DNA from: Nitrospirota bacterium
GTDB taxonomy: Bacteria; Nitrospirota; UBA9217
Length of the DNA stretch: 64,000 bases
Direction: 5' to 3'
Assembly (NCBI GenBank): GCA_035625205.1
Contig: DASPQB010000113.1
Span: 13,078 to 77,077 of the forward strand
Within the stretch, counting starts at the first letter, position 1. Each line of letters begins with the position of its first letter. Shown here one piece after another: positions 5,163 to 52,276 of this stretch. The notes below the pieces were generated by a model that did not search any database, was not told where the DNA came from, and worked only from the letters and a program-made list of their open reading frames with translations. The position numbers were made by a program, and so were the translations under genes.

Positions 5163-5931
5163 GTTCTGGCAGATAACGCATCGACCTTACATCGGATAAA
5201 GAGCCACGCACGACTTACAGTCAGTGTCAGCTCTTACCCGTCTCAGGTGACTGAGCGAGCGGAGGGTGCGTAACTTCGTCCGAATTTTGCGGTAAGCTTG
5301 CTGGCCGCCTACGGGGTCATCGGTCTCGCCCTGCTTTGCACCGCTGCACCTCCGTGGGACCATTTATTAACGCTGATCGATACCATGCACATCGTTCGAG
5401 CGATGGTTACAATTCTCTTCTCGCCTACTGCACGCGATCATTCCGGGGCAGCGGCAGTCCGAAGCACTTCCCACCCTCATCCATCGCGACTACGGTGATC
5501 CTCGTCGTCTTTGGCGCTTTGACCGGCCCGCATGACTCCCGGATCGCAGCAAATCTGCCAGCACCATGGGGAGAAGTTTGAGAACAAATCAACTTCAGCG
5601 TTTCTCTGCTCTGGGCCGCTGTGCTGGCCAACGCTCTCTTCCGCCTCCGAGATGCTCAGGCCCCCGATGACTTTGGTAGATCGGTAACGATCTCTCGAAA
5701 CTGCTCTGATGCCGCCTCCAACTCTATATCATCTCGGGGACGACTCCGCACTTAGAACAAAGAGGGGAATAGCATTAACACCCACCTCCGCACCGACCGT
5801 GAATACAACCGTGGGCAGCCTGTCCGTTATGGTACGTTCCAAGCCGAATCCGCTCGAAGCTATGAGATTTGCGGCCATCGGAACAACCGGATATACAATC
5901 TTCGCAATTGAGTTACGTGCTGCCTTGCGGG

Positions 5932-8547: not shown

Positions 8548-9170
8548 TATGAAGACGACCACCCACTCCGTTATAACTCACGTGCGCGAGGTTTATGATC
8601 AGCGGTTCCTCGAAACACCAATAGTTCATTCCGTATTCTTGCCACTGAAATCTGCTGCTTTTTGTTGTTTCATGCGATACCCATAAAAATACCCCATTGT
8701 AATTTTCGATGTATGCTATATTGAAGACATATAAGTTTCGCTTACCTTTTCTTAGTTTCGCAATGACAAATATCAGAATACGTACATATCGTGCACTCAG
8801 ATCCTTTTGATAAATAAGCAACAATGATAAAGCCAAACCCTTCGCGAGAAGGAGATGGAAATCCACGGGTCTTAAAAGACCAAAACGGCCGAGCTGCCGA
8901 AGAATGTGCTCTTTCCTCTTGCTTGGATTTCTTATTTAGCGCAGGATCAAACAATGTGGCAAGGTGGTAGGATCAGGATTCTCAACAGATTACCGAATGT
9001 GGATTACAAACTTTACGAGTCTACGCAAGCGTATTCTGAATCTGTATAATCGCTCTCTTCTCTTCGGCCGCAAACCCTGATGATGAAATGTTCAGCACTA
9101 TGTTTCGAGCAAGGAGAGCGTGCAGCACGGATAATTCGTAACCTACCGGAGGTTTAACACGAAACGGTTA

Positions 9171-11249
9171 TTGAATACATTGATTTTGGTTCTTTTCGCA
9201 GCGATCCTCCTGTTTGCCTGCGGTGGATGGGGGTGCGGTAAAAACCAAAGCCCCAAATACACCGTAACCTATAACGGCAATGGTAGCACCGGCGGCAGCG
9301 TCGCGATCGACACAACCAACTATGTGTCGGGGCAGACCGTCACGGTGCTCGGGAATACAGGAGATCTAGCAACTATCGGGTATACCTTCTCGGGCTGGAA
9401 CACGGTATCTAATGGATCTGGCACGCTCTATACGCCAGGACAGACCTTTACGATGAGTTCGGCAAATGTCACTCTGTACGCGATGTGGACAGTAACGATA
9501 GCACGCGAGCTTTACGTAGCCAATTTACTGAACGATACGGTTACCGTATTTGATTCATCCATGAGCGGGAATGTGAATGCACTGAGACAATTTGGCAACA
9601 TTACAGGCTTGAACTTGCCAGTCGGCATTGCCGTGGACATGGTCAATAACCAAATCTTTGTGGCTAACTACGATACGATCACGGTATATGGGGGTACAGC
9701 AACCGGCAATGTCGCACCGGTAAGTACCATCTCCGGCACGAACACCGGTTTGAATAACCCACAGGGCATTGACGTGGACACTGTCAATAACCAGATCTTT
9801 GTGGCTAACTCGGGGAACAACTCACTCACGGTATATGGGAGTACAGCAACCGGCAATGTCACACCGGTAAGTACCGTCTCAGGGACAAGCACTGGCTTGA
9901 GCAGCCCCGTGGGCATTGCCGTGGACACGGTTCATGACCAGATCTTTGTGGCTAACTCCAATAATAACTCCATCACAGTATATGGGAGGACAGCAATCGG
10001 CAATGTCGCACCGGTAAGTACCATCTCCGGCTCGAACACAGGCTTGAATAAACCACAGGGCCTTGCCGTGGATACGCTTCATAACCAGATCTTTGTGGCC
10101 AATGGGGGGAACAATTCGATCACGGTATATGGAAGAACAGACACCGGGAATGTCAATCCGGTAAGTGCCATTTCCGGCACAAACACCGGTTTGAGCATCC
10201 CACACTTCATTGCCGTTGACACGGTTAATAACCAGATCTTTGTGGTTAACTACCATACGATCACGGCATATGGGAGGACAGACACCGGCAACGTCATTCC
10301 GGTAAGTACCATCTACGAAACCGCAAGCACTGGTTTGAGCTACCCACAGGGCATTGCCGTGAACACGGTAAATAGCCAGATCTTTGTGACCAATTGGGGG
10401 AACAGCTCAATCACGGTATATGATTCGACAGCCATCGGGAATGCTGCACCGGTAAATACCATATCCGCTCTGAGCACTGGTTTGAACACACCAAAGGGGA
10501 TTGCCGTGGACCCAGTAACTGATCAGATCTTTGTGACTAATTGGGGTAACAGCTCAATCACGGTATATGGCATGACAGACACCGGCAATATCTCACCGGT
10601 AAGCACCATCTCCGGAACAAGTACTGGCTTGAGAAGCCCAACCAGCATTACCGCGGACACGGTCAACAACCAGATCTTCGTGGCTAACATCGGTAACAAC
10701 TCAATCACGGTATATGGCACGACAGACACCGGGAATGTCGCACCGGTAAGTACCATCCCTGGAACAAACACTGGCGTGAGCGGCCCATTCGGCATTGCCG
10801 TGGACACGGTTACTAATCAGATCTTTGTGACCAACTCCAATAATAACTCCATCAAGGTATATGGGAGGACAGCCTCCGGCAATCTCACACCGGTAAGTAC
10901 CATCTCTGGCGAAAGCACTGGCTTGAGCGGCCCATACGCTATTGCCGTGGACACGGCAGATAACCAGATCTTTGTGACCAACTTCACTAATAACTCCATC
11001 ACGGTATATGAGGGGACAGCCTCCGGCAATGTCGCACCGGTAAGTACCATCTCCGGCGCAAACACTGGCTTGAACGGACCAGTGGGTATTGCCGTGGACA
11101 CGGTAAATAACCAGATCTTTGTGGCTAACGAAAGCAGCAACTCCATCACGGTATATAGCACGACAGCCACCGGGAATGTCACGCCGGTAAGTACCATCTC
11201 CGGCGCGAACTCAGGCTTGAGCGGACCATGGGGCATTGCGATTGAGTAG
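9171..11249 (+). CDS. Surface lipoprotein with an N-terminal Listeria/Bacteroides (InlB B-repeat-like) domain followed by about 12 YVTN-family beta-propeller repeats.
   Basis: TTG start 9171 with GGAGG at 9148-9152. Lipobox: LLFACGGW. The N-terminal part TVTYNGNGSTGGSV...YTFSGWNTVSNGSG...YAMWT is repeat-domain-like. About 12 tandem 46-aa units follow (IFVANSGNNSITVYG-TATGNVAPVSTISGTNTGLNNPQGIAVDTVNNQ), resembling 40-residue YVTN propeller repeats. It ends with TAG. Confidence 0.85.
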   Translation: MNTLILVLFAAILLFACGGWGCGKNQSPKYTVTYNGNGSTGGSVAIDTTNYVSGQTVTVLGNTGDLATIGYTFSGWNTVSNGSGTLYTPGQTFTMSSANVTLYAMWTVTIARELYVANLLNDTVTVFDSSMSGNVNALRQFGNITGLNLPVGIAVDMVNNQIFVANYDTITVYGGTATGNVAPVSTISGTNTGLNNPQGIDVDTVNNQIFVANSGNNSLTVYGSTATGNVTPVSTVSGTSTGLSSPVGIAVDTVHDQIFVANSNNNSITVYGRTAIGNVAPVSTISGSNTGLNKPQGLAVDTLHNQIFVANGGNNSITVYGRTDTGNVNPVSAISGTNTGLSIPHFIAVDTVNNQIFVVNYHTITAYGRTDTGNVIPVSTIYETASTGLSYPQGIAVNTVNSQIFVTNWGNSSITVYDSTAIGNAAPVNTISALSTGLNTPKGIAVDPVTDQIFVTNWGNSSITVYGMTDTGNISPVSTISGTSTGLRSPTSITADTVNNQIFVANIGNNSITVYGTTDTGNVAPVSTIPGTNTGVSGPFGIAVDTVTNQIFVTNSNNNSIKVYGRTASGNLTPVSTISGESTGLSGPYAIAVDTADNQIFVTNFTNNSITVYEGTASGNVAPVSTISGANTGLNGPVGIAVDTVNNQIFVANESSNSITVYSTTATGNVTPVSTISGANSGLSGPWGIAIE
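9500..11249 (+). repeat. Coding tandem repeat, about 12 units of 138 bp (46 aa), near-identical at the DNA level.
   Basis: Motifs such as ccggtaagtaccatctccggc and cagatctttgtggctaac recur every 138 bp from about 9650 to 11240. Many antisense ORFs in the track are artefacts of this periodicity. Confidence 0.8.
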
Positions 11250-11463
11250 AGCCTGGTAAGATTGGCACGTTCTGTTTCCCGACATCTTTTCATCCTTGGT
11301 CTTGATCCAGGTTACTCTTGCTGCGTAGCCGATGAATTGATCAATGCCCCGATTCATGAGCGGGCGGACGTGAGACCGCACGGGAAGCGCGTACAGGAGC
11401 GGAGGGGGCGCCCCGATAAATATTACTGAGTCTCATAAGAAGCTTTTTTCTATATCTATTTTC

Positions 11464-21002: not shown

Positions 21003-22648
21003 CCTGCTCATCCTCTCCATCCTTCGCCAGCTCTTCACCACGATGGGCCGTGCCCGGAATGCCCCTCATTGGCCTCCGGTTTTCTCGGGATAGATCATCC
21101 TCAACGTTAGGGCAGGCCATTCATGATCCTCGGTTGAGGTGTCACGCCACAATCACCACTGCGACGTCAGTAGCTCTTGATCCAACCGCCGTCCGGTAAA
21201 AGTGTATGCCGTCTATCTTGCTCTTCGCTTTTTAGCTGCCTCTATTCTTGCATTTTCCATCATGTGCCGGGCAACCTCGTTTGAAATTTCATCTTTTAGA
21301 TTGTCCAGGTCGCTATCACCCGCATCAAGTTTTTGTGAATAAACCATGTTGCCTTTTATCTTATTCCTCAGCTCTGAATGAAATTTGATGACATTCGCGC
21401 TTTTTGCTTGTATATATTTATTTCCGAACTATGCATTCATGTTCATTTTTTTGCAACCATTATGTCTTGCCTCCATTGTTCAGACCCTTCACTTTGCCGT
21501 ATATTCGAAGAGCTCTTTCTTTATTTTAGCATGAGAGAAAATTATGAGAGGAGTATTTTTTAGGGCATTCCAACAAACACAGAATGTGACCAGGTACGTT
21601 CCAAAAAAGACAAGTTCCCGTAAAGATCACGACAAAATACAACCGATTCAGTACGTTATACAGAGACTGCAGCGGTCAAGCACGATAAACGCAGGTGTCG
21701 GCAGACTCAGCAGGCTTTCTCAAACCGAAGCTGTGAGATGAGTATGGTTCGTAGAGATGGGTCGATGTTCGGGTCAATAGTGTTCGTTTCTTTTTTGCAT
21801 GTCTGGTTTGCCGCGCGCAGGCTTGTCGGAAAGTCACAACACTTTCAAAAATGATATAATATTTCAGTGTATCTATAACTAATACTACCTGAAAGATGTG
21901 TTTGAAAATCATAAAGCATAATTAATCAACAGGGGAAAATTTATTAGCCGGCAAATGATGCATATGGGATTTGCCTCAATGATTCGGGTTTGGTCTATCG
22001 GGATCGGAACAGCAGAATATCATATATTTGCGAAGCTTTCTGAGATAGATGCCCTTCTCATTGCTTCAATGATTTTGACTGAAATGAGCAGATCGATATT
22101 CTCGAAACGGACAGTTCTAAGTTGTTTATTGCCTTTTCTGCACTCTTCATTTGCGTTGCTTTCCCTACTTTTAATTTATGCGGCACTTTTGCGCCACTAT
22201 CCATAGGTTTCTTCATAGATTCCGTTTTAATAGGGATAGTGATACGGATGATTAATAATCAACTCCTTCCTGCACTATTGCCTTAAAATTTTTCGCTGAA
22301 CATAATATTACATTTGTACTGATATTCTTCAGCTATTAGGCGGAAAGGTGTTCTGTAAAAAGCAAAAAAACGATCACCGAAGCACACAGGCACTATGCTC
22401 CAATGAATATCAACGGCCGCGCTCAAGCCACGTGGATAGCCATGGCTCGCAGTCATACACAAAGCTCAGCCTGCACATGGTTCAGGTAACCCTACGCACA
22501 CCAAAAAGGCTTACTATCTTCAGAGGAAGTCGCCGAATAAGAACGATGAGAAAGATCCGACGTGTTATCGCCGACAGTATAGCGCCTGGCGACGTCTTTC
22601 ATCAATCAGGACTGTCGGGCCTTAAGAAATAAGAGGGATAAACAAACA

Positions 22649-24364
22649 ATGACAAAAGGCAAGAGGGAGGCACTCGACATACGGTTGCCTGTTTTTCAGG
22701 GGATCTTTCCCATAAAAGGATCCCGGATGCTGACAGATATCATAGCCGGCCTCACGCTGGCGGCGCTCGCTATTCCTGAGGTGATGGGCTATACAAAAAT
22801 CTCCGGTACGCCGGTAATCACGGGCCTCTATACCATCCTCATTCCCATGACCCTATTCGCACTTTTCGGCTCATCGCGGCACCTCGTCGTCGGTGCCGAC
22901 TCTGCCACTGCGGCCATTCTCTCAGGCGCTCTCGCCGGGATTGCCGTGTCCGGATCGGCCGAATGGCTTGCACTGGCAGAAGTCCTTGCGTTCCTGTCGG
23001 CTGGTTTCCTGATCATCGCCCGTATTATTCGCCTGGGATTCCTTGCGGATTTTCTGTCTCGAACGGTGCTCATAGGGTTCCTGTCAGGCGTAGGTGTCCA
23101 AGTTTCTCTCGGCGAAATCTCGAGTATGTTAGGGCTACCTGGAGGAGGGCATGACCCATTCCACAAGATCATCAACGATCTACACCAGGTCGAACAGACG
23201 AGTTTCTATTCCCTGGGTGTCTCCGTGGCTGTGCTGGCGATCATCATCGGAGCGAAAAAGATTTCGAAAAAGATCCCTGGCGCGCTCATAGCTGTGACAG
23301 CTGCCATTGTAGCCAACTCGGTGTTCAATTTTGAAGCTCATGGCGCACATGTTCTTGGCGCGGTTCCGAGCGGCCTGCCGGAGATCGGCCTGCCGGACGT
23401 CCATTGGGATAACGGCCTTATCCTGAAATTGCTTCCCACCGCTTTCGCAATGTTCGTGGTGATCCTGGCCCAGAGCGCAGCGACGTCCCGCGTCTATGCG
23501 ACCCGCTACAGCGAGCGCTTCAGCGAAAATGTGGATCTGGTAGGCCTTGGCCTTGCCAATATCGGAGCCGCGTTGAGCGGGACGTTTGTGGTGAACGGAA
23601 GTCCGACCAAGACTCAGATGGTCGATAGTGCGGGTGGTCGCAGTCAGCTCGCGCAGATTACCACAAGCGTCATTGTCTTGTTGGTATTGCTGTTTCTGAC
23701 GGGTCCACTGGCCAGCATGCCAATTGCCGCCCTCTCAGCGGTAGTCTTCCTGATCGGTGTTGAACTGATCGATGTCAACGGGATGCGAAAGATCTGGGTA
23801 CAACGCCGGCCTGAATTCTGGGTGGCGTTGATCACGGCCATCGCGGTGGTCTGCGTCGGCGTCGAGCAGGGCATTCTCCTTGCGATGGTACTATCACTCA
23901 TCGAGCACGTGAGGCGAAGCTACCGATGTAAGAACGCTGTGCTCGCACCTGACGAGATAGGTGGCTGGCGGTCATTGCCGGTGAGCACTCCCGAACAAAT
24001 ACGGCCCGGCCTGCTGGTATATCGCTTCAGTCACACGATGTACTATGCAAACGCCGAACAGCTTTCAAGGGAGGTCATCGAACTCGCAAACGGGGCACAG
24101 CCCCCTCTGGTCTGGCTCTGTATCGAGGCGTCAGCGATTGCGGATGTAGATTTCACTGCGGCATCCACCCTTCGCGATATCCACAGCACGCTGAAGAAGC
24201 AGGGGATCCGGATCGTGTTTTCCGAAATGATCGACCTCGTCAAGGCTGAGTTGGACAAGTATGAGCTTACCAAGCTGTTTGGGAAAGACGCCTTCTACGA
24301 GACCATCAATGCAGTAGTAAGCGCATATGACAAGAGGTTGGTGAACAACGAAGAAAGAAAATGA
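22649..24364 (+). CDS. SulP-family anion transporter with a C-terminal STAS domain.
   Basis: The 571-aa ORF has a typical SulP N-terminus (DIIAGLTLAALAIPEVMGYTKISG) and a C-terminal STAS-like region. Confidence 0.9.
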   Translation: MTKGKREALDIRLPVFQGIFPIKGSRMLTDIIAGLTLAALAIPEVMGYTKISGTPVITGLYTILIPMTLFALFGSSRHLVVGADSATAAILSGALAGIAVSGSAEWLALAEVLAFLSAGFLIIARIIRLGFLADFLSRTVLIGFLSGVGVQVSLGEISSMLGLPGGGHDPFHKIINDLHQVEQTSFYSLGVSVAVLAIIIGAKKISKKIPGALIAVTAAIVANSVFNFEAHGAHVLGAVPSGLPEIGLPDVHWDNGLILKLLPTAFAMFVVILAQSAATSRVYATRYSERFSENVDLVGLGLANIGAALSGTFVVNGSPTKTQMVDSAGGRSQLAQITTSVIVLLVLLFLTGPLASMPIAALSAVVFLIGVELIDVNGMRKIWVQRRPEFWVALITAIAVVCVGVEQGILLAMVLSLIEHVRRSYRCKNAVLAPDEIGGWRSLPVSTPEQIRPGLLVYRFSHTMYYANAEQLSREVIELANGAQPPLVWLCIEASAIADVDFTAASTLRDIHSTLKKQGIRIVFSEMIDLVKAELDKYELTKLFGKDAFYETINAVVSAYDKRLVNNEERK

Positions 24365-24587
24365 ACACGTCAGTCCAAATGTTCCCTAAATAATGAGAAC
24401 GAGTTTATCTATCGATACACTTAGGGCCCGTCACGTAAAGTCAGGTCACTATCCCCTCTCCCACCGTCCAAATAATGCAAAGGTTTATATCCTGTAACCA
24501 TGTTTATTACGCTTAAGGACCCAAACAGGCAGTTAGAAAAGTTAGAAAAAGAGGGCTACAGGTTACACTGTAATACCTTAAAAGGCT

Positions 24588-24635
24588 TGGTAGCGGGGAC
24601 AGGATTTAAACCGGCGACCTTCGGGTTATGAACCC
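24588..24635 (-). other. 48-nt fragment matching the 3' half of initiator tRNA-fMet (anticodon loop to CCA), degenerate. Probable att-site remnant or tRNA pseudogene.
   Basis: The minus strand reads GGGTTCATAACCCGAAGGTCGCCGGTTTAAATCCTGTCCCCGCTACCA. It has the CAU anticodon loop with the GGG/CCC stem, variable loop AGGTC, T-arm, acceptor 3' strand and CCA. There is no matching 5' acceptor strand upstream, and the T-stem has mismatches. Confidence 0.55.
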
Positions 24636-25004
24636 TCTAACGATCGGCCAGTACCAGTCGCACATTTATGGCTCATGAGCAAAGCAATTAATCCTGCCCA
24701 TCCAGGAGAAACCTTGAAAAAGGATTTTTTATTTAGCTGGGCTCTTCACTCGGACTAAAAGCATCCTATCCCCTCCCGCTTCTGAAAGGACGCAGTTTTA
24801 AAGATACCTCAGGGGTGACTCCCGTTTATATACTAGGTGCACATAACAAGGGGGAAGGAATCCTATCGGTCCCCTTGTGTTATTTCCCGTCAACAAGACC
24901 ACTCTCTCCTCTACCATACAATTCTGCATAATCACAGCATTCAGGTTCCCAGCCGGAGATTCTGGATGGGAACCGAGAAGTACCGTGCCAGCATCAGTTC
25001 AGCG

Positions 25005-26217
25005 TAAGCGTCGTGGTGCCGCTCACGCCACCTCTCATACGTGCCGTTATGGTAACAGTGCCTGCACTCAAACCTTCCACCTGCCCCTTTCTATCTCTAA
25101 AATAACCGTTGAACGCCGCGATAGAACGATTTGAAGAAGTCCAGGCCAGGCTCCAGGAATTGGTCAGATTCTGCGTTACGCCGCCGAAATAGTACGCGGT
25201 TGCTGTGAGTTGCAGCGTCTGCCTGACTTGAATACTTGGGTTGACCGGCGTTATTACGATACTCTGCAGCGTGGCCGATGGTACGGTGAGCTGGGTCTTC
25301 CGGTCACGATTCCCCCGGCTTTAGCAAAGTGGCGCTAATGCTTGTCGCATCGGTGCAAATGGGCGTCACTAGGCCATTGGATTGGAGTGGAAGGCTTTCC
25401 TGATTTCAGCAATCCTCTTGTTTGAAGACTTCCAGGTCACCTGGGTGGTCAGGTCCTTAGGGGAGGAATCCGAAAAGGTTCCCATCGCCGTGAATTGCTG
25501 GGTCGCCCCGATGGAAATCGTAGCATTGCTGGGCGTGATCGTGATGGTTTTCAGGGTAACAGTTGCTACGGTGAGAGTCACCGAAACGGAATTGGTAACA
25601 GTCCCCGATACCGCCGTTATGACAGTCGTCCCGGCTCCGACCGATGTCGCCAGCCCGTTGGTGACTCCCGCATTACTGATGGTCGCAACGGCGCCGTTTG
25701 ATGAATTCCAAGTCACGAGCGCGGTAAGGTTCTGGGTCGTGCTGTCAGAATAGGTACCGGTCGCGGTAAACTGCAGCGAAGTTCCCAGGGCGATCTGGGA
25801 AGACGCGGGCCGTTATGACGATGGATGACAGCGTTGCCGAAGTTACGGTGAGAGTCGAAGTTCCCGAAATGCTTCCGAGCGATGCCGTGATTGTCGTCGA
25901 ACCGAGTACAACGGGGGTAGCCAGGCCGTTGGAACCCGCAGCGTTGCTAATGGCTGCAACATCTGTATTCGATGAGCTCCAGACCACCCCTCTCGTCAGG
26001 TCCTGCACGGAACCACCAGAATAATTGCCGCTCGCTGTAAACTGCTGGGGTAGTCCCATCGGGATGATCGAGTTGAACGGCACGACATCAATCGACTGCA
26101 GCGTTACCGTTGGCGCGTCAGCCGTAAGCGTGGTGCTGCCCGAAAAGCCACCCAGGGTAGCGGTGATCGTGGCTGTTCCCGCTCCTATAGAGGTCGCCAG
26201 TACACTGGAATACCATT
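25005..26217 (-). pseudogene. Bacterial Ig-like (Big_2) repeat surface-protein gene, 5'-truncated and split by at least three frameshifts.
   Basis: Consecutive minus-strand pieces each encode Big_2-like domains (...TATITATLGGFSGSTTLTADAPTVTLQSI...; ...VTWKSSNKRIAEI...; ...QLTATAYYFGGVTQNLTNSWSLAWTSSNRSIAAFNGYF...VTITARMRGGVSGTTTLTLN). They lie in three different frames. The upstream frame opens directly after a stop in AT-rich DNA with no start codon. Confidence 0.6.
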
Positions 26218-26372
26218 AAATATTGTATATAACATAATAAAAGTTTATTAATAATTTTTTGCTGTATGCATTTCATACTGTTTTACTGTTTCTGGCAGTA
26301 TTCCGTTAGAAATCTATTAGAAACTCAATCGCCTCAATAATCAATTACTATTACAAATACTTATCCTTTTCG

Positions 26373-26790
26373 CATGTACACGCGGAAGTGGCTTTGTGGC
26401 GGTCCCGCAAAGAAGGATGCCCAACGTTTTCTTATCGAAAAGCTTGATGCGTTAAACAACGGCACATACCGCGAATCTTCCGTCATCCCCTTTGATCCGT
26501 TCGGGGATAAATGATAAATGGATGAAGAATTATGCCGAGAAGAACGTACGATCCAATACTCGCGCCCCAGTATAAAGACATCATCAATCTTCTATTAAAA
26601 CCTGCATTTGGACTTTGTAAAGTGAAACAAATCACGACAGGCATGCTACAGGAGGTTAGTACAGACAGGCTTAATTAAGTATTGAACGAAACCAAGTGGG
26701 CTAAGTACAGCCTCATTTCGATACCATTCAAGAATGCCGTGTTGAACAATGTACCTTGATACCACGTCAGCTCGCTGCGGGGTGTTCACT
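26373..26790 (+). pseudogene. Tyrosine recombinase (phage-type integrase) N-terminal remnant, multiply frameshifted, catalytic domain absent.
   Basis: Short frames encode MYTRKWLCGGPAKKDAQRFLIEKLDALNNG, then (shifted) TYRESSVIPFDPFGDK, then MPRRTYDPILAPQYKDIINLLLKPAFGLCKVKQITTGMLQEV. These resemble the arm-binding and SAM-like N-terminal region of integrases. No R..H..R..Y catalytic domain follows. Confidence 0.45.
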
Positions 26791-26892
26791 TAACTTTGAT
26801 ATAATTCGCGATATAATGATTCTGAAGGATTTTGCTTAATTTAACCGCACATTGAAATTACGATCAGTTTTCGCTACAGAAAGAGGCGTTTC

Positions 26893-28140
26893 ATGAAAAT
26901 CAGTATTATATCCGATACCCACTTTGGCCATGAGACCTGTACCCTTGTTCAGAAACAAGGTGATAGTATCGTCATGGGACCGAAGTATGACGCTTTTCTA
27001 AAAGCCGTAGGTACGGGAAACGATTACCTTGTTATGGTCGGGGACGTACTCGATTATTCCAGAGCGAGTTATGAACACGCCTATCAGTATGCCCAGGTAT
27101 TCTTTCAACAGATACAACGAGATGGGATTGCGCATCAAATAATCTATATCGCGGGAAATCACGACGCAGATATCTGGCATATCGTTCAGCAACAACGCGC
27201 CGTGATTAACAGACTGCTCCATGGGAAACTTCCGGTACCATTCGAGCACTCCGTGGCCGGAATCATCGACGACCGACAGGGCAGTCCCCACCGGGGTTTT
27301 ACTCTAAGCAGCGGTTCTGCAAAAACATCGGAACTAAAGTACGGCGGTATGTTCCTTGACTCTATAACCGGCACCACGAGTCCGACGGTATTCAATTTTG
27401 TCTTTCCGAGCCTCTATATCGTAACTGATGAGGAAAGCATCATCGTAACGCACGGGCACTATCTTGAACCTTATTGGTCTATTCTCGGAGAACTGTTAAT
27501 GAAGATCGTATCAGATGACTTGAATGTCAAAGAAATCGACTCTGAAACGATGGTGGAACTGAACTTCCCCTTCAATCAGCTCGGATGCACGGGCATAGGA
27601 CATACGGGAGTGTTGGCCAGTCTAGCACGCCAGATCGAACGGCAAATAAACGATCGGGACCTGGCGCATATTCAGAAATACCTGGATCGCTCGATCACAG
27701 TAATAGATAATGCCGCGAATTTAGGGTGGGTCAAAAAGGTGATCGCACATTACGCTATGCATAAAATGGAAGAACACATCCTGGACGCTCTTAAGAATTC
27801 ACAGAAGTCCCACTATGGCACGGACTTTCTTTCCAAACAAGAAGTACAGGATAGATTCCGACGGTTCTATAGTGCTTGTCTGCTTGAAATTAAAGCACTA
27901 AATGATGCGATGAATCTCGGCATGCCGAAGCCGCGGAAATTCGTTTTTGGCCATACTCACCGACCGATTGCGTGGAACGACCCTCAGCCACCCACTTTGG
28001 AAACAGCGTCTAAAGCTGCCCCACAAGCCGTGACGCTGTACAACACCGGCGGCTGGCTCGAGGATGAGGGGAAGTTTTGCGGCGCTGAAGTGTTCATCCA
28101 TGAAACAGAACGCGGGTTCTCGTCGGTTTCCATCCGATAA
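26893..28140 (+). CDS. Calcineurin-like metallophosphoesterase with an insertion of about 130 aa between motifs V and VI.
   Basis: The motif set is complete: DTHFG (I), GDVLD (II), GNHD (III), THGH (V), GHTH (VI). A long non-conserved stretch lies between V and VI. The protein is 415 aa. The gene sits alone, directly right of the integrase remnant. Confidence 0.85.
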   Translation: MKISIISDTHFGHETCTLVQKQGDSIVMGPKYDAFLKAVGTGNDYLVMVGDVLDYSRASYEHAYQYAQVFFQQIQRDGIAHQIIYIAGNHDADIWHIVQQQRAVINRLLHGKLPVPFEHSVAGIIDDRQGSPHRGFTLSSGSAKTSELKYGGMFLDSITGTTSPTVFNFVFPSLYIVTDEESIIVTHGHYLEPYWSILGELLMKIVSDDLNVKEIDSETMVELNFPFNQLGCTGIGHTGVLASLARQIERQINDRDLAHIQKYLDRSITVIDNAANLGWVKKVIAHYAMHKMEEHILDALKNSQKSHYGTDFLSKQEVQDRFRRFYSACLLEIKALNDAMNLGMPKPRKFVFGHTHRPIAWNDPQPPTLETASKAAPQAVTLYNTGGWLEDEGKFCGAEVFIHETERGFSSVSIR

Positions 28141-49111: not shown

Positions 49112-49348
49112 ATGTTGGACCAGCGGTTCAACTTGCTACAATCGGGCAATTATCGGGATTTGATTGATGCGTATAGTAAAGCAATAGAACTGAATCCGAA
49201 ATATGCGGAGGCATATTACGGTCGAAGGATTGCTTATCAGAAATTAGGAAATACTAATATGGTTATCCAAAATCTTAAGATAGCTGCGAAGTTAGGATAT
49301 AAACAAGCCCAAACCTATGTAACTTCGCAGGGAATAGAATGGCGATAA
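49112..49348 (+). CDS. Small TPR-repeat protein.
   Basis: A 78-aa ORF (..YSKAIELNPKYAEAYYGRRIAYQKLGN..) with the classic TPR consensus. Confidence 0.5.
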   Translation: MLDQRFNLLQSGNYRDLIDAYSKAIELNPKYAEAYYGRRIAYQKLGNTNMVIQNLKIAAKLGYKQAQTYVTSQGIEWR

Positions 49349-49715
49349 AACATTGCTGAGTTTGGGCTGTGTTCTCATTTCCTTGACTAAAAAGATTTCC
49401 TCGTGAGACACGACAAAAGCCCTTCAGAAACCCCGTTTCCCCGTTTTTTCAACCTCAATTTCATAACCCTGATTAGACATTAGATCTGATTCATATCGTT
49501 CCGATGAGTCCCAAAGATAATCGACTCTTCAAGCGATCGAACCATAGCACCGATCACAAATTCATTTTAAATCATTGCATTTTCTGATATAGTTTTCAAT
49601 TAGTAACTCCATCCTGAAACAATTGAGTATGCCAATCTTTGAAAAACTGTAATTTTTACACTGAATTGTGGATGATCGAAATGACGTCGTCGCCAAAAAA
49701 TACTGGGAGGCTTGC

Positions 49716-50237
49716 ATGGGAAATCTTATCAAAGGAGATATGGTTCGTCACGAACGATTCGGTATAGGCCGCATTGAGGAAACATCGGTTGGCGGGATCA
49801 AGCAGGACTGTACCGTCTACTTCCCCCGTCTGGACAAAAGCGTAGTTGCCTCGGAAGACGAACTCCAGATCCTCTCCGACACCGAAACCACTGCCTACGA
49901 AATGATGAAGCTTGCGGTATTCGAAGTCAGCCGTGAAGAGATACCGTGGACCGAGTTTGGGAACCGCTGGCAGGGAGGAGAGATGATCCTCAAGCCGGGT
50001 GATCCGAAGCTCGCGTCAAAGAGCGTTTCCATCGAAACCTTTTTTCACAAGATCGTGATGATCCGCGACCGTTTGCGGGTCATGGAAGCGCAGATCAATT
50101 CACACAAGGTCCTCACCGATGCCGAAAAGGTCGATTTGCAGCAATATATCACGCGCATTTATGGTTCACTCACCACCTTCAATATACTGTTTAAGGACAA
50201 GAGCGGCCACTTCATCGGGCAGAAGGGAGAGGCGTGA
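49716..50237 (+). CDS. Hypothetical protein.
   Basis: A GGGAGG RBS precedes ATG 49716. The translation MGNLIKGDMVRHERFGIGRIEETSVGG... is coding-like but has no family recognised. Confidence 0.5.
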   Translation: MGNLIKGDMVRHERFGIGRIEETSVGGIKQDCTVYFPRLDKSVVASEDELQILSDTETTAYEMMKLAVFEVSREEIPWTEFGNRWQGGEMILKPGDPKLASKSVSIETFFHKIVMIRDRLRVMEAQINSHKVLTDAEKVDLQQYITRIYGSLTTFNILFKDKSGHFIGQKGEA

Positions 50238-50387
50238 GGATGCAGGGGTAAATGCCCGATAAAGTCATATTCTAATTAGCACAAGAGGAGTTCTTTAATA
50301 AGAATATAAGCGTGAGCAGCCTGGCAAGAAAAATAATACTCGGATTCGCTTGTATCAGGCATGTTTTCCCAGCCAGAGGAGGCTTGT

Positions 50388-52027: not shown

Positions 52028-52276
52028 ATCCGCCTCGTTTCGCGTCTATTCAGCAGACTTATCAGTAAAGTAAAACTCCTGTGCGGTACTCATGGGAGGG
52101 GAATCGCACCGGGATCTTGATCGTGATCGAGGCGAGAACTATTGATTGTATCCTTGCATATCGTAATATAGTTTTCCGTCAACCGTTCTTCCTTCTTTCC
52201 GGGTTCAGCAGATTTGATCATGGCATGCAAACGCTCTTCTCATATATGCCCGTAAAACTGCTTGGTAATCGATTTA

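Follow-up and report, generated by a model that had tools for sequence, protein, structure and literature searches.

How the 3' half of an initiator transfer RNA (tRNA) gene, a broken gene for bacterial Ig-like (Big_2) repeats and the N-terminal part of a tyrosine integrase came to lie together is the question raised by positions 24588-26790 of a 64-kb window of DNA from an uncultured Nitrospirota bacterium (contig DASPQB010000113.1, GenBank assembly GCA_035625205.1; the window is the whole stretch that we analyzed, and all positions refer to it). A preliminary description, made from the sequence alone, had proposed that this cluster is an integration scar, and our analysis supports the proposal. 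We consider it likely that the locus of about 2.2 kb is the degraded remnant of an integrative element whose tyrosine integrase inserted into the 3' half of a tRNA-fMet gene, with the crossover in the anticodon loop. Related integrases mostly adjoin an initiator tRNA or its 3' fragment. Furthermore, the G+C content forms a mosaic across neighboring pieces (0.25 in an AT-rich junction, 0.43 in the integrase piece and 0.56 in the Big_2 pseudogene), which also speaks for this origin.

The tRNA fragment

The fragment occupies 48 nucleotides (nt) on the minus strand (24588-24635) and reads GGGTTCATAACCCGAAGGTCGCCGGTTTAAATCCTGTCCCCGCTACCA, exactly as first quoted. It consists of three anticodon-stem bases, the CAU loop, the variable region, the T arm, the 3' strand of the acceptor stem and CCA. 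The CAU anticodon together with consecutive G-C stem pairs (GGG-TTCATAA-CCC) fits initiator-type tRNAs. When the fragment alone was submitted to Infernal, a 5'-truncated tRNA match was obtained (model positions 27-71, 16.2 bits, with a gathering score of 29). A BLASTN search of 28 Gb of Escherichia coli genomes recovered annotated tRNA-Met genes (89.8% identity over 49 nt, E = 1e-8), and such matches were found in all 5,426 genomes with a median of four copies per genome. Among the tRNAs located beside related integrases, the best identity was 45/48, to the functional metagenomic initiator tRNA of locus L114; the parent tRNA-fMet would be recognized by the 3' end GGTCGCAGGTTCAAATCCTGTCCCCGCTACCA. 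The differences from the L114 tRNA are C32>T, a T-stem A>C exchange that leaves one C.T mismatch, and, in the T loop, C56>T at a position that is near-invariant in tRNAs. The T-stem strand CCTGT, originally suspected of mismatches, is native to this type of tRNA, and the fragment therefore carries only three substitutions.

The absence of a 5' acceptor strand nearby was borne out. Similarity to tRNA ends at 24635, and neither an acceptor 5' strand nor a D arm was found beyond this position. ARAGORN detected no tRNA in the whole window, and Rfam models revealed none in 23500-27500 at E ≤ 10 and none in the whole window at the gathering score. Lacking its 5' half and carrying C56>T and the T-stem mismatch, the fragment does not form the complete cloverleaf of an initiator tRNA. 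A search of JGI metagenomes for an exact 32-mer of the fragment gave no matches, and a relaxed pattern retrieved five ordinary tRNA-Met genes from IMG/VR, which are of use as comparators only.

We interpret the fragment as the displaced tRNA 3' end, that is an attR-type repeat, of an integrative element. Its CCA end is separated by 223 nt (24365-24587, G+C content 0.41) from the stop codon of a SulP gene. This spacer has no Pfam match in any of the six frames and presumably represents chromosomal DNA that originally followed the tRNA. An integrase C-terminus, as it would accompany an attL- or attP-type fragment, was sought to the left; there, only the antisense of the tRNA itself matched, which argues against these readings. 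On the other side of the fragment, 300 nt (24636-24936) without Pfam match and without DNA match to any fetched locus lead toward the Big_2 pseudogene. A HigA-like N-terminal peptide considered in this segment (about 24681-24761, plus strand) stays below significance. Its TIGR02607 match covers 16 residues (E = 0.011, 15.5 bits against a cut-off of 47.7), no Pfam match was found, and HigA-like chains in the PDB scored only E ~0.7.

The integrase remnant

The integrase remnant lies on the plus strand at 26374-26790 and was identified with PF14659, HMMER and tblastn. It comprises part of the arm-binding domain and the SAM-like core-binding domain, corresponding to residues ~28-150 of ~390. Using the relative P0121 as tblastn query, we obtained three colinear high-scoring segment pairs (HSPs) in frames 1, 2 and 3 (26386-26511, 26504-26560 and 26544-26744), which together span residues 28-144 with a combined E = 1.9e-26. 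A 125-residue peptide stitched from the three plus frames (26374 to ~26760) matched Phage_int_SAM_3 (PF14659) with E = 6e-8 and 33.2 bits (cut-off 22.6); the best single open reading frame (ORF) reached just 22.7 bits. A word-indexed protein search with the stitched peptide found nothing. An exhaustive HMMER search recovered 144 proteins, many of them integrases of 350-470 amino acids, with P0121 as the best match (59% identity, query 5-121 against protein 28-144, E = 7.6e-33).

Three lesions interrupt the gene: a 7-bp tandem duplication of GATAAAT (26506-26512 and 26513-26519), a shift of the frame by 1 nt near 26545-26556 and, at 26676-26678, a TAA in frame. Of the catalytic domain there is no trace in the window, where tblastn with five relatives produced only N-terminal HSPs; with the domain, the R-H-R-Y residues of a tyrosine recombinase are gone. 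An integrase N-terminus spread over three frames and devoid of its catalytic domain had been recognized before, and both features held up. To the left of the remnant lies a junction of 158 nt with 25% G+C (26216-26373) that shows no detectable similarity to anything. On one side it stands in place of the 5' part of the Big_2 gene. On the other side it replaces the start of the integrase gene (~27 codons) and the excisionase gene expected upstream, since the relatives carry an HTH_17 or excisionase-like gene directly upstream of the integrase.

Related integrases and their tRNA target

We fetched 80 metagenome loci with P0149-like relatives of the integrase and scanned them for tRNAs. The relatives tested carry both PF14659 and PF00589. 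In 36 loci ARAGORN placed a tRNA-Met(CAT) on the strand opposite the integrase, with the tRNA 3' end facing the integrase stop codon. In 35 of the 36 this 3' end is separated from the stop codon by no more than about 100 nt, or the two overlap; the exception is L119, where the tRNA-Met is found ~2.1 kb downstream of the integrase. Apart from the elongator-type tRNA-Met of L143, all these tRNAs are of initiator type in sequence, begin with CGCGGGG or TGCGGGG and contain GGGCTCATAACCC or a close variant. We then counted the initiator-tRNA 3' motif within 500 nt at the 52 informative loci, defined by at least 150 nt beyond the integrase. It was present at 33 of these, as complete tRNAs in 26 and as fragments only in seven. 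Other targets were seen in just four loci, namely tRNA-Thr (two), tRNA-Leu and tRNA-Cys. At the seven fragment-only loci tRNA similarity starts exactly at the anticodon loop CTCATAA. The fragment in the window starts 3 nt before the anticodon loop and hence has the same kind of boundary.

The neighborhoods of the relatives are telling in the same sense. P0133, the best full-length homologue, is encoded in the order helix-turn-helix (HTH) gene of the HTH_17 family, integrase, tRNA-Met (sharing 22 nt with the 3' end of the integrase gene) and ribosomal-protein operon. In L135 an AEP-type primase and a TrwB-like ATPase lie on the 5' side of the integrase and a Na+/H+ exchanger beyond the tRNA, and in L114 the order is HTH gene, integrase, tRNA and a gene of the phosphoglucomutase/phosphomannomutase family. 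With the tRNA as target, mobile-element genes on the 5' side of the integrase and housekeeping genes beyond the tRNA, we conclude that these integrase relatives belong to integrative elements at tRNA-fMet.

In many of the loci L091-L170 and in L179 (e.g., L179 1194-2421) the integrase ORF enters the tRNA-fMet gene in antisense and stops inside the T arm, with C-termini reading ...GSGGRI or ...LVAGxGFEPxTxGL. The 3' end of the integrase and the attachment (att) site therefore overlap. The C-terminal tRNA-antisense peptide motif was also tried as a proxy for the target and discarded as too insensitive, being present in 3 of 53 full-length matches. In the flanks fetched for the related loci, which reach up to 6 kb, no far-end repeat was found. 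Only four weak matches were obtained when the integrases were aligned with viral contigs, and the elements are therefore not typical catalogued viruses. The related intact elements may form an undescribed family characterized by an integrase ending in the tRNA-fMet T arm, an AEP primase and a TrwB-like ATPase.

Two loci deserve separate mention. The integrase of L164 (2081-3212), 47% identical to the remnant, is itself truncated at about residue 266, and an oppositely oriented ORF across the truncation is, judging from its sequence, similar to an AbiEii-type toxin. In L094 a degenerate 3' fragment resembling tRNA-fMet, in which the anticodon loop is altered (5740-5789), lies ~210 nt upstream of the integrase, and no tRNA comes after the integrase gene, an arrangement that is atypical of the group.

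Order of the remnants and a model of decay

In intact relatives the plus-strand order is element interior, integrase (+), tRNA (-) and chromosome. From this order a displaced fragment should lie on the minus strand at the left end of the element, with the downstream flank beyond its CCA; Islander relies on the same principle. In the window we find the SulP gene, 223 nt, the fragment (-), ~1.7 kb and the integrase remnant (+) pointing to the right. Order and strands thus match the architecture from displaced fragment to integrase. Missing past the remnant are ~240 integrase codons and the regenerated tRNA.

Whereas the identity of the three remnants, their lesions and the association of related integrases with tRNA-fMet were observed directly, we infer that the fragment and the integrase remnant stem from one element, that the fragment is its attR end and that a single deletion took the tRNA. 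Integration would have regenerated a tRNA beside the integrase gene and pushed the 3' 45-48 nt of the original tRNA to the far end of the element, where they would now be seen as the fragment at 24588-24635. Decay would then have taken the integrase catalytic domain along with the adjoining regenerated tRNA, and also the first ~27 integrase codons with the excisionase gene. The surviving integrase piece would have gained the duplication, the frameshift and the nonsense codon, and the tRNA fragment its three substitutions. The Big_2 gene between both remnants would have lost its 5' 40% and become frameshifted. In their present state the remnants, as neutral DNA, can no longer recombine, and the element is immobile.

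The Big_2 pseudogene

The Big_2 pseudogene (24994-26215, minus strand) was delimited with PF02368 and with tblastn using intact homologues, which are 650-700 amino acids long and up to 67% identical. What is left of the gene is equivalent to residues ~280-690 of a protein of ~690 amino acids. All three minus-strand frames of 24960-26230 hold pieces of Big_2 repeats, every piece being significant by itself, and the stitched peptide contains four Big_2 repeats (E = 1.3e-35, 121.6 bits). With the intact homologue P0003 as tblastn query, residues 282-412 were placed at 26209-25811 (frame -1) and residues 413-670 at 25809-25027 (frame -2). From this placement the N-terminal ~40% is lost, and the C-terminus and stop codon (24994-24996) are retained. 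Many further HSPs were off register, as the Big_2 repeats resemble one another. The reading frame shifts at ~25810, and an out-and-back change occurs near 25300-25420, which agrees with the earlier count of at least three frame changes. Likewise, the homology begins abruptly at ~26209-26215 beside the 158 nt of AT-rich DNA, as had been described. A 115-residue ORF of the pseudogene, looked up as an exact product, was not on record.

The 3' flank of the pseudogene (24937-24993) is conserved as well. Positions 24937-24995 are ~80% identical over 59 nt to the segment directly past the stop codon of a chromosomal homologue (L089 12045-12103). Beyond gene and these 59 nt, nothing in the fetched loci of Big_2 homologues matches the window. 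In the two homologues with readable neighborhoods, the gene lies beside GerE-type regulators and metabolic genes, and no mobile-element genes are present.

Alternative explanations

Several observations weigh against a simple decayed element, and we set them out together. A second copy of the 48-nt repeat and an intact tRNA-fMet were both sought within the 64-kb window and neither was found, hence the island cannot be delimited; the matching direct repeat that the preliminary description asked for is absent from the window, and it was probably deleted with the intact tRNA. The closest relatives of the remnant (P0121 at 59%; L164, L156 and L137 at 47-50%) are truncated or lie on short contigs, and we therefore infer the target preference from the wider group, in which some integrases of similar N-terminal identity use tRNA-Thr, tRNA-Leu or tRNA-Cys. 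The Big_2 pseudogene has a host-like G+C content of 0.56 and a 3' flank as in a non-mobile homologue. For these reasons it may not be cargo and is possibly chromosomal, in which case an extra rearrangement is needed; the gene was either cargo or brought in by such a further event. Finally, no relative with an empty site was found, and gene order around both flanking genes differs even at 87% protein identity.

The comparison of the flanks was made from both sides. The closest SulP homologues are found in metagenome-assembled genomes of Nitrospirota. Among 80 genome loci examined for SulP synteny, an 87%-identical relative shares no neighbors, and none of the loci resembled the scar in DNA or in translation. 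A metallophosphoesterase relative with 87% protein identity has different genes on both sides, and its DNA similarity is limited to 26864-28139. Accordingly, no relative was seen in which the remnants appear as intact genes in an ancestral arrangement.

Could ordinary deletion have produced the fragment? A native tRNA-fMet may have lost its 5' half in this way, with the Big_2 gene as its original upstream neighbor and the integrase piece arriving through an unrelated event that truncated Big_2. The host-like composition and chromosomal-type 3' flank of the Big_2 gene, its place directly on the 5' side of the tRNA, the homologue contexts free of mobile-element genes and the missing direct repeat in the window are all compatible with this scenario. 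It would, however, have to place the break by chance within 3 nt of the anticodon loop, precisely where the fragment-only att sites of related elements start. It would also require an integrase remnant of a mostly tRNA-fMet-targeting group to lie 1.7 kb away in the expected orientation, which is an unlikely coincidence. We therefore judge ordinary deletion improbable and prefer a single integrative element.

A comparably low probability attaches to an origin from two elements. Here, fragment and integrase remnant would derive from different members of a tandem or composite array at a tRNA-fMet hotspot, and deletions, possibly with an inversion, would have brought in a chromosomal Big_2 gene. 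The mosaic composition with three abrupt junctions (24636, 26216 and ~26790) fits such a history, and so does the degenerate tRNA-like fragment upstream of the L094 integrase. Rearrangement has indeed been extensive in this lineage, as is evident from the displacement of the gene at 49669-50283. This gene is 89% identical in DNA to L176 6861-7474, where the copy lies 2.5 kb upstream of the metallophosphoesterase gene, and in the window it is located 21.5 kb downstream. Two elements are nevertheless less parsimonious than one, and the window holds no second fragment and no second integrase piece.

Very little speaks for an assembly artefact, either as a chimeric contig or as frameshifts introduced by errors in repetitive Big_2 DNA. 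The Big_2 repeats are mutually similar and the source is a metagenome assembly, but over 21.7 kb an ENA contig (ERZ27251267, k141_355813) is distinguished from the window by 13 substitutions and no indel; two of the substitutions fall in the Big_2 pseudogene, and every frameshift is shared. Over 26334-26960, which covers the integrase remnant and the metallophosphoesterase junction, the window is also identical to a Logan contig obtained from a different sequencing run. We conclude that the frameshifts are real. Least probable of all is a functional tRNA half, be it a split-tRNA half or a tRNA-like regulatory RNA: the fragment is still 45/48 identical to a functional tRNA, but no 5' partner was found, C56 is mutated, the T-stem contains a mismatch, no promoter-like site was reported beside it, and its break lies at position 29, unlike split tRNAs, which are joined at position 37/38.

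The right edge of the scar

A promoter-like site (TTAACT-16-TATAAT, 26790-26817, plus strand), identified by its match to the consensus only, lies where the scar ends on the right, 76 nt before an intact metallophosphoesterase gene (26893-28140). The number of such sites in the region shows no excess over shuffle expectation. DNA similarity to the 87%-identical metallophosphoesterase relative (L176) begins only at 26864, and therefore the upstream region is not shared with this orthologue. Leftover element DNA (26756-26863) with the putative promoter may now drive the metallophosphoesterase gene, and an element-tied deletion could have removed a copy of the initiator-tRNA gene. If true, the former would be a modest example of a gene that acquired its promoter from a defunct mobile element. 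We regard it as improbable that the scar is more than inert junk in the sense of such a tRNA-copy deletion or promoter capture, and this judgement is a joint one that includes the separate reading of the intact relatives as an undescribed family.

The metallophosphoesterase gene encodes 415 amino acids, is slightly low in G+C content (0.48) and weakly matches candidate defence families (PADLOC PDC-S10, E = 9e-7; NCBIfam DS8_antiphage, E = 1e-3). Its L176 orthologue (87%) adjoins a TnpB-like gene in a completely different neighborhood.

Further observations in the window

Three other features of the window were recorded. An inverted repeat of 171 nt with 75% complementarity connects 2237-2407 and 49446-49616, so that its arms are 47 kb apart; a shorter third copy relates 2253-2295 and 52137-52179. 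The arm at 49446-49616 lies just upstream of an ORF at 49668, and an Rfam scan of 49300-49700 found nothing. A cyclic di-GMP-I riboswitch (8822-8901, plus strand; 47.6 bits, gathering score 35) is located upstream of an ORF of 692 amino acids (9171-11249). This ORF is made of 147-nt tandem repeats, nine overlapping copies of which, with starts mostly 147 nt apart, extend over 9678-11297. Finally, a stretch of 1.6 kb lying upstream of SulP (21042-22648) has a reduced G+C content of 0.43 and lacks long ORFs; further gene remnants may be hidden in it.

Meaning and comparison with known systems

The scar is an ordinary kind of feature, a by-product of genome evolution, and its meaning is mostly one of annotation. 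It shows where an element once integrated at tRNA-fMet and where the genome of an uncultured Nitrospirota bacterium is prone to rearrangement. Four short ORFs that are called genes in the ENA assembly coincide wholly or partly with the pseudogene pieces or the tRNA fragment, and therefore should not be annotated as proteins. Of practical use are the about 40 metagenomic loci that show the preference of this integrase group for the initiator-tRNA gene with crossover at the anticodon loop; this set could feed tools for att-site prediction.

Compared with the surface proteins of 650-700 amino acids with multiple Big_2 repeats that occur in Nitrospirota and other bacteria, the pseudogene likewise has four repeats and the native C-terminus. 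It differs in lacking the N-terminal ~280 residues, which would include any signal peptide, in carrying at least three frameshifts and in the absence of the conserved GerE-type regulator as neighbor. The integrase piece is colinear with residues ~28-150 of phage-type tyrosine recombinases with two domains (PF14659 and PF00589, 390-400 amino acids). In contrast to these enzymes, PF00589 is missing, the frame is broken three times and no start-codon context is left.

The closest known parallel is provided by the islands in tRNA genes collected in Islander, which consist of a tyrosine integrase, a regenerated tDNA and a displaced 3' tDNA fragment; anticodon-centred attP sites are counted there as class "A" (PMC4383910). 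The intact relatives follow this plan: their integrase gene borders directly on the 3' end of the tRNA, and the pair is flanked by mobile-element genes to one side and by housekeeping genes to the other. The window shares with such islands a displaced tRNA 3' fragment at one end, an att boundary at the anticodon stem-loop as in class A, and a nearby integrase remnant oriented as in the intact relatives. It differs from them in that the 64 kb contain neither an intact regenerated tRNA sharing the repeat nor a complete integrase gene, the catalytic domain and the excisionase being gone, in that only ~2.2 kb are left, and in that the sole large piece of "cargo" is a pseudogene that is perhaps chromosomal. 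With regenerated tRNA, catalytic domain and excisionase missing, the locus is a fossil of an Islander-type island rather than a delimitable one.

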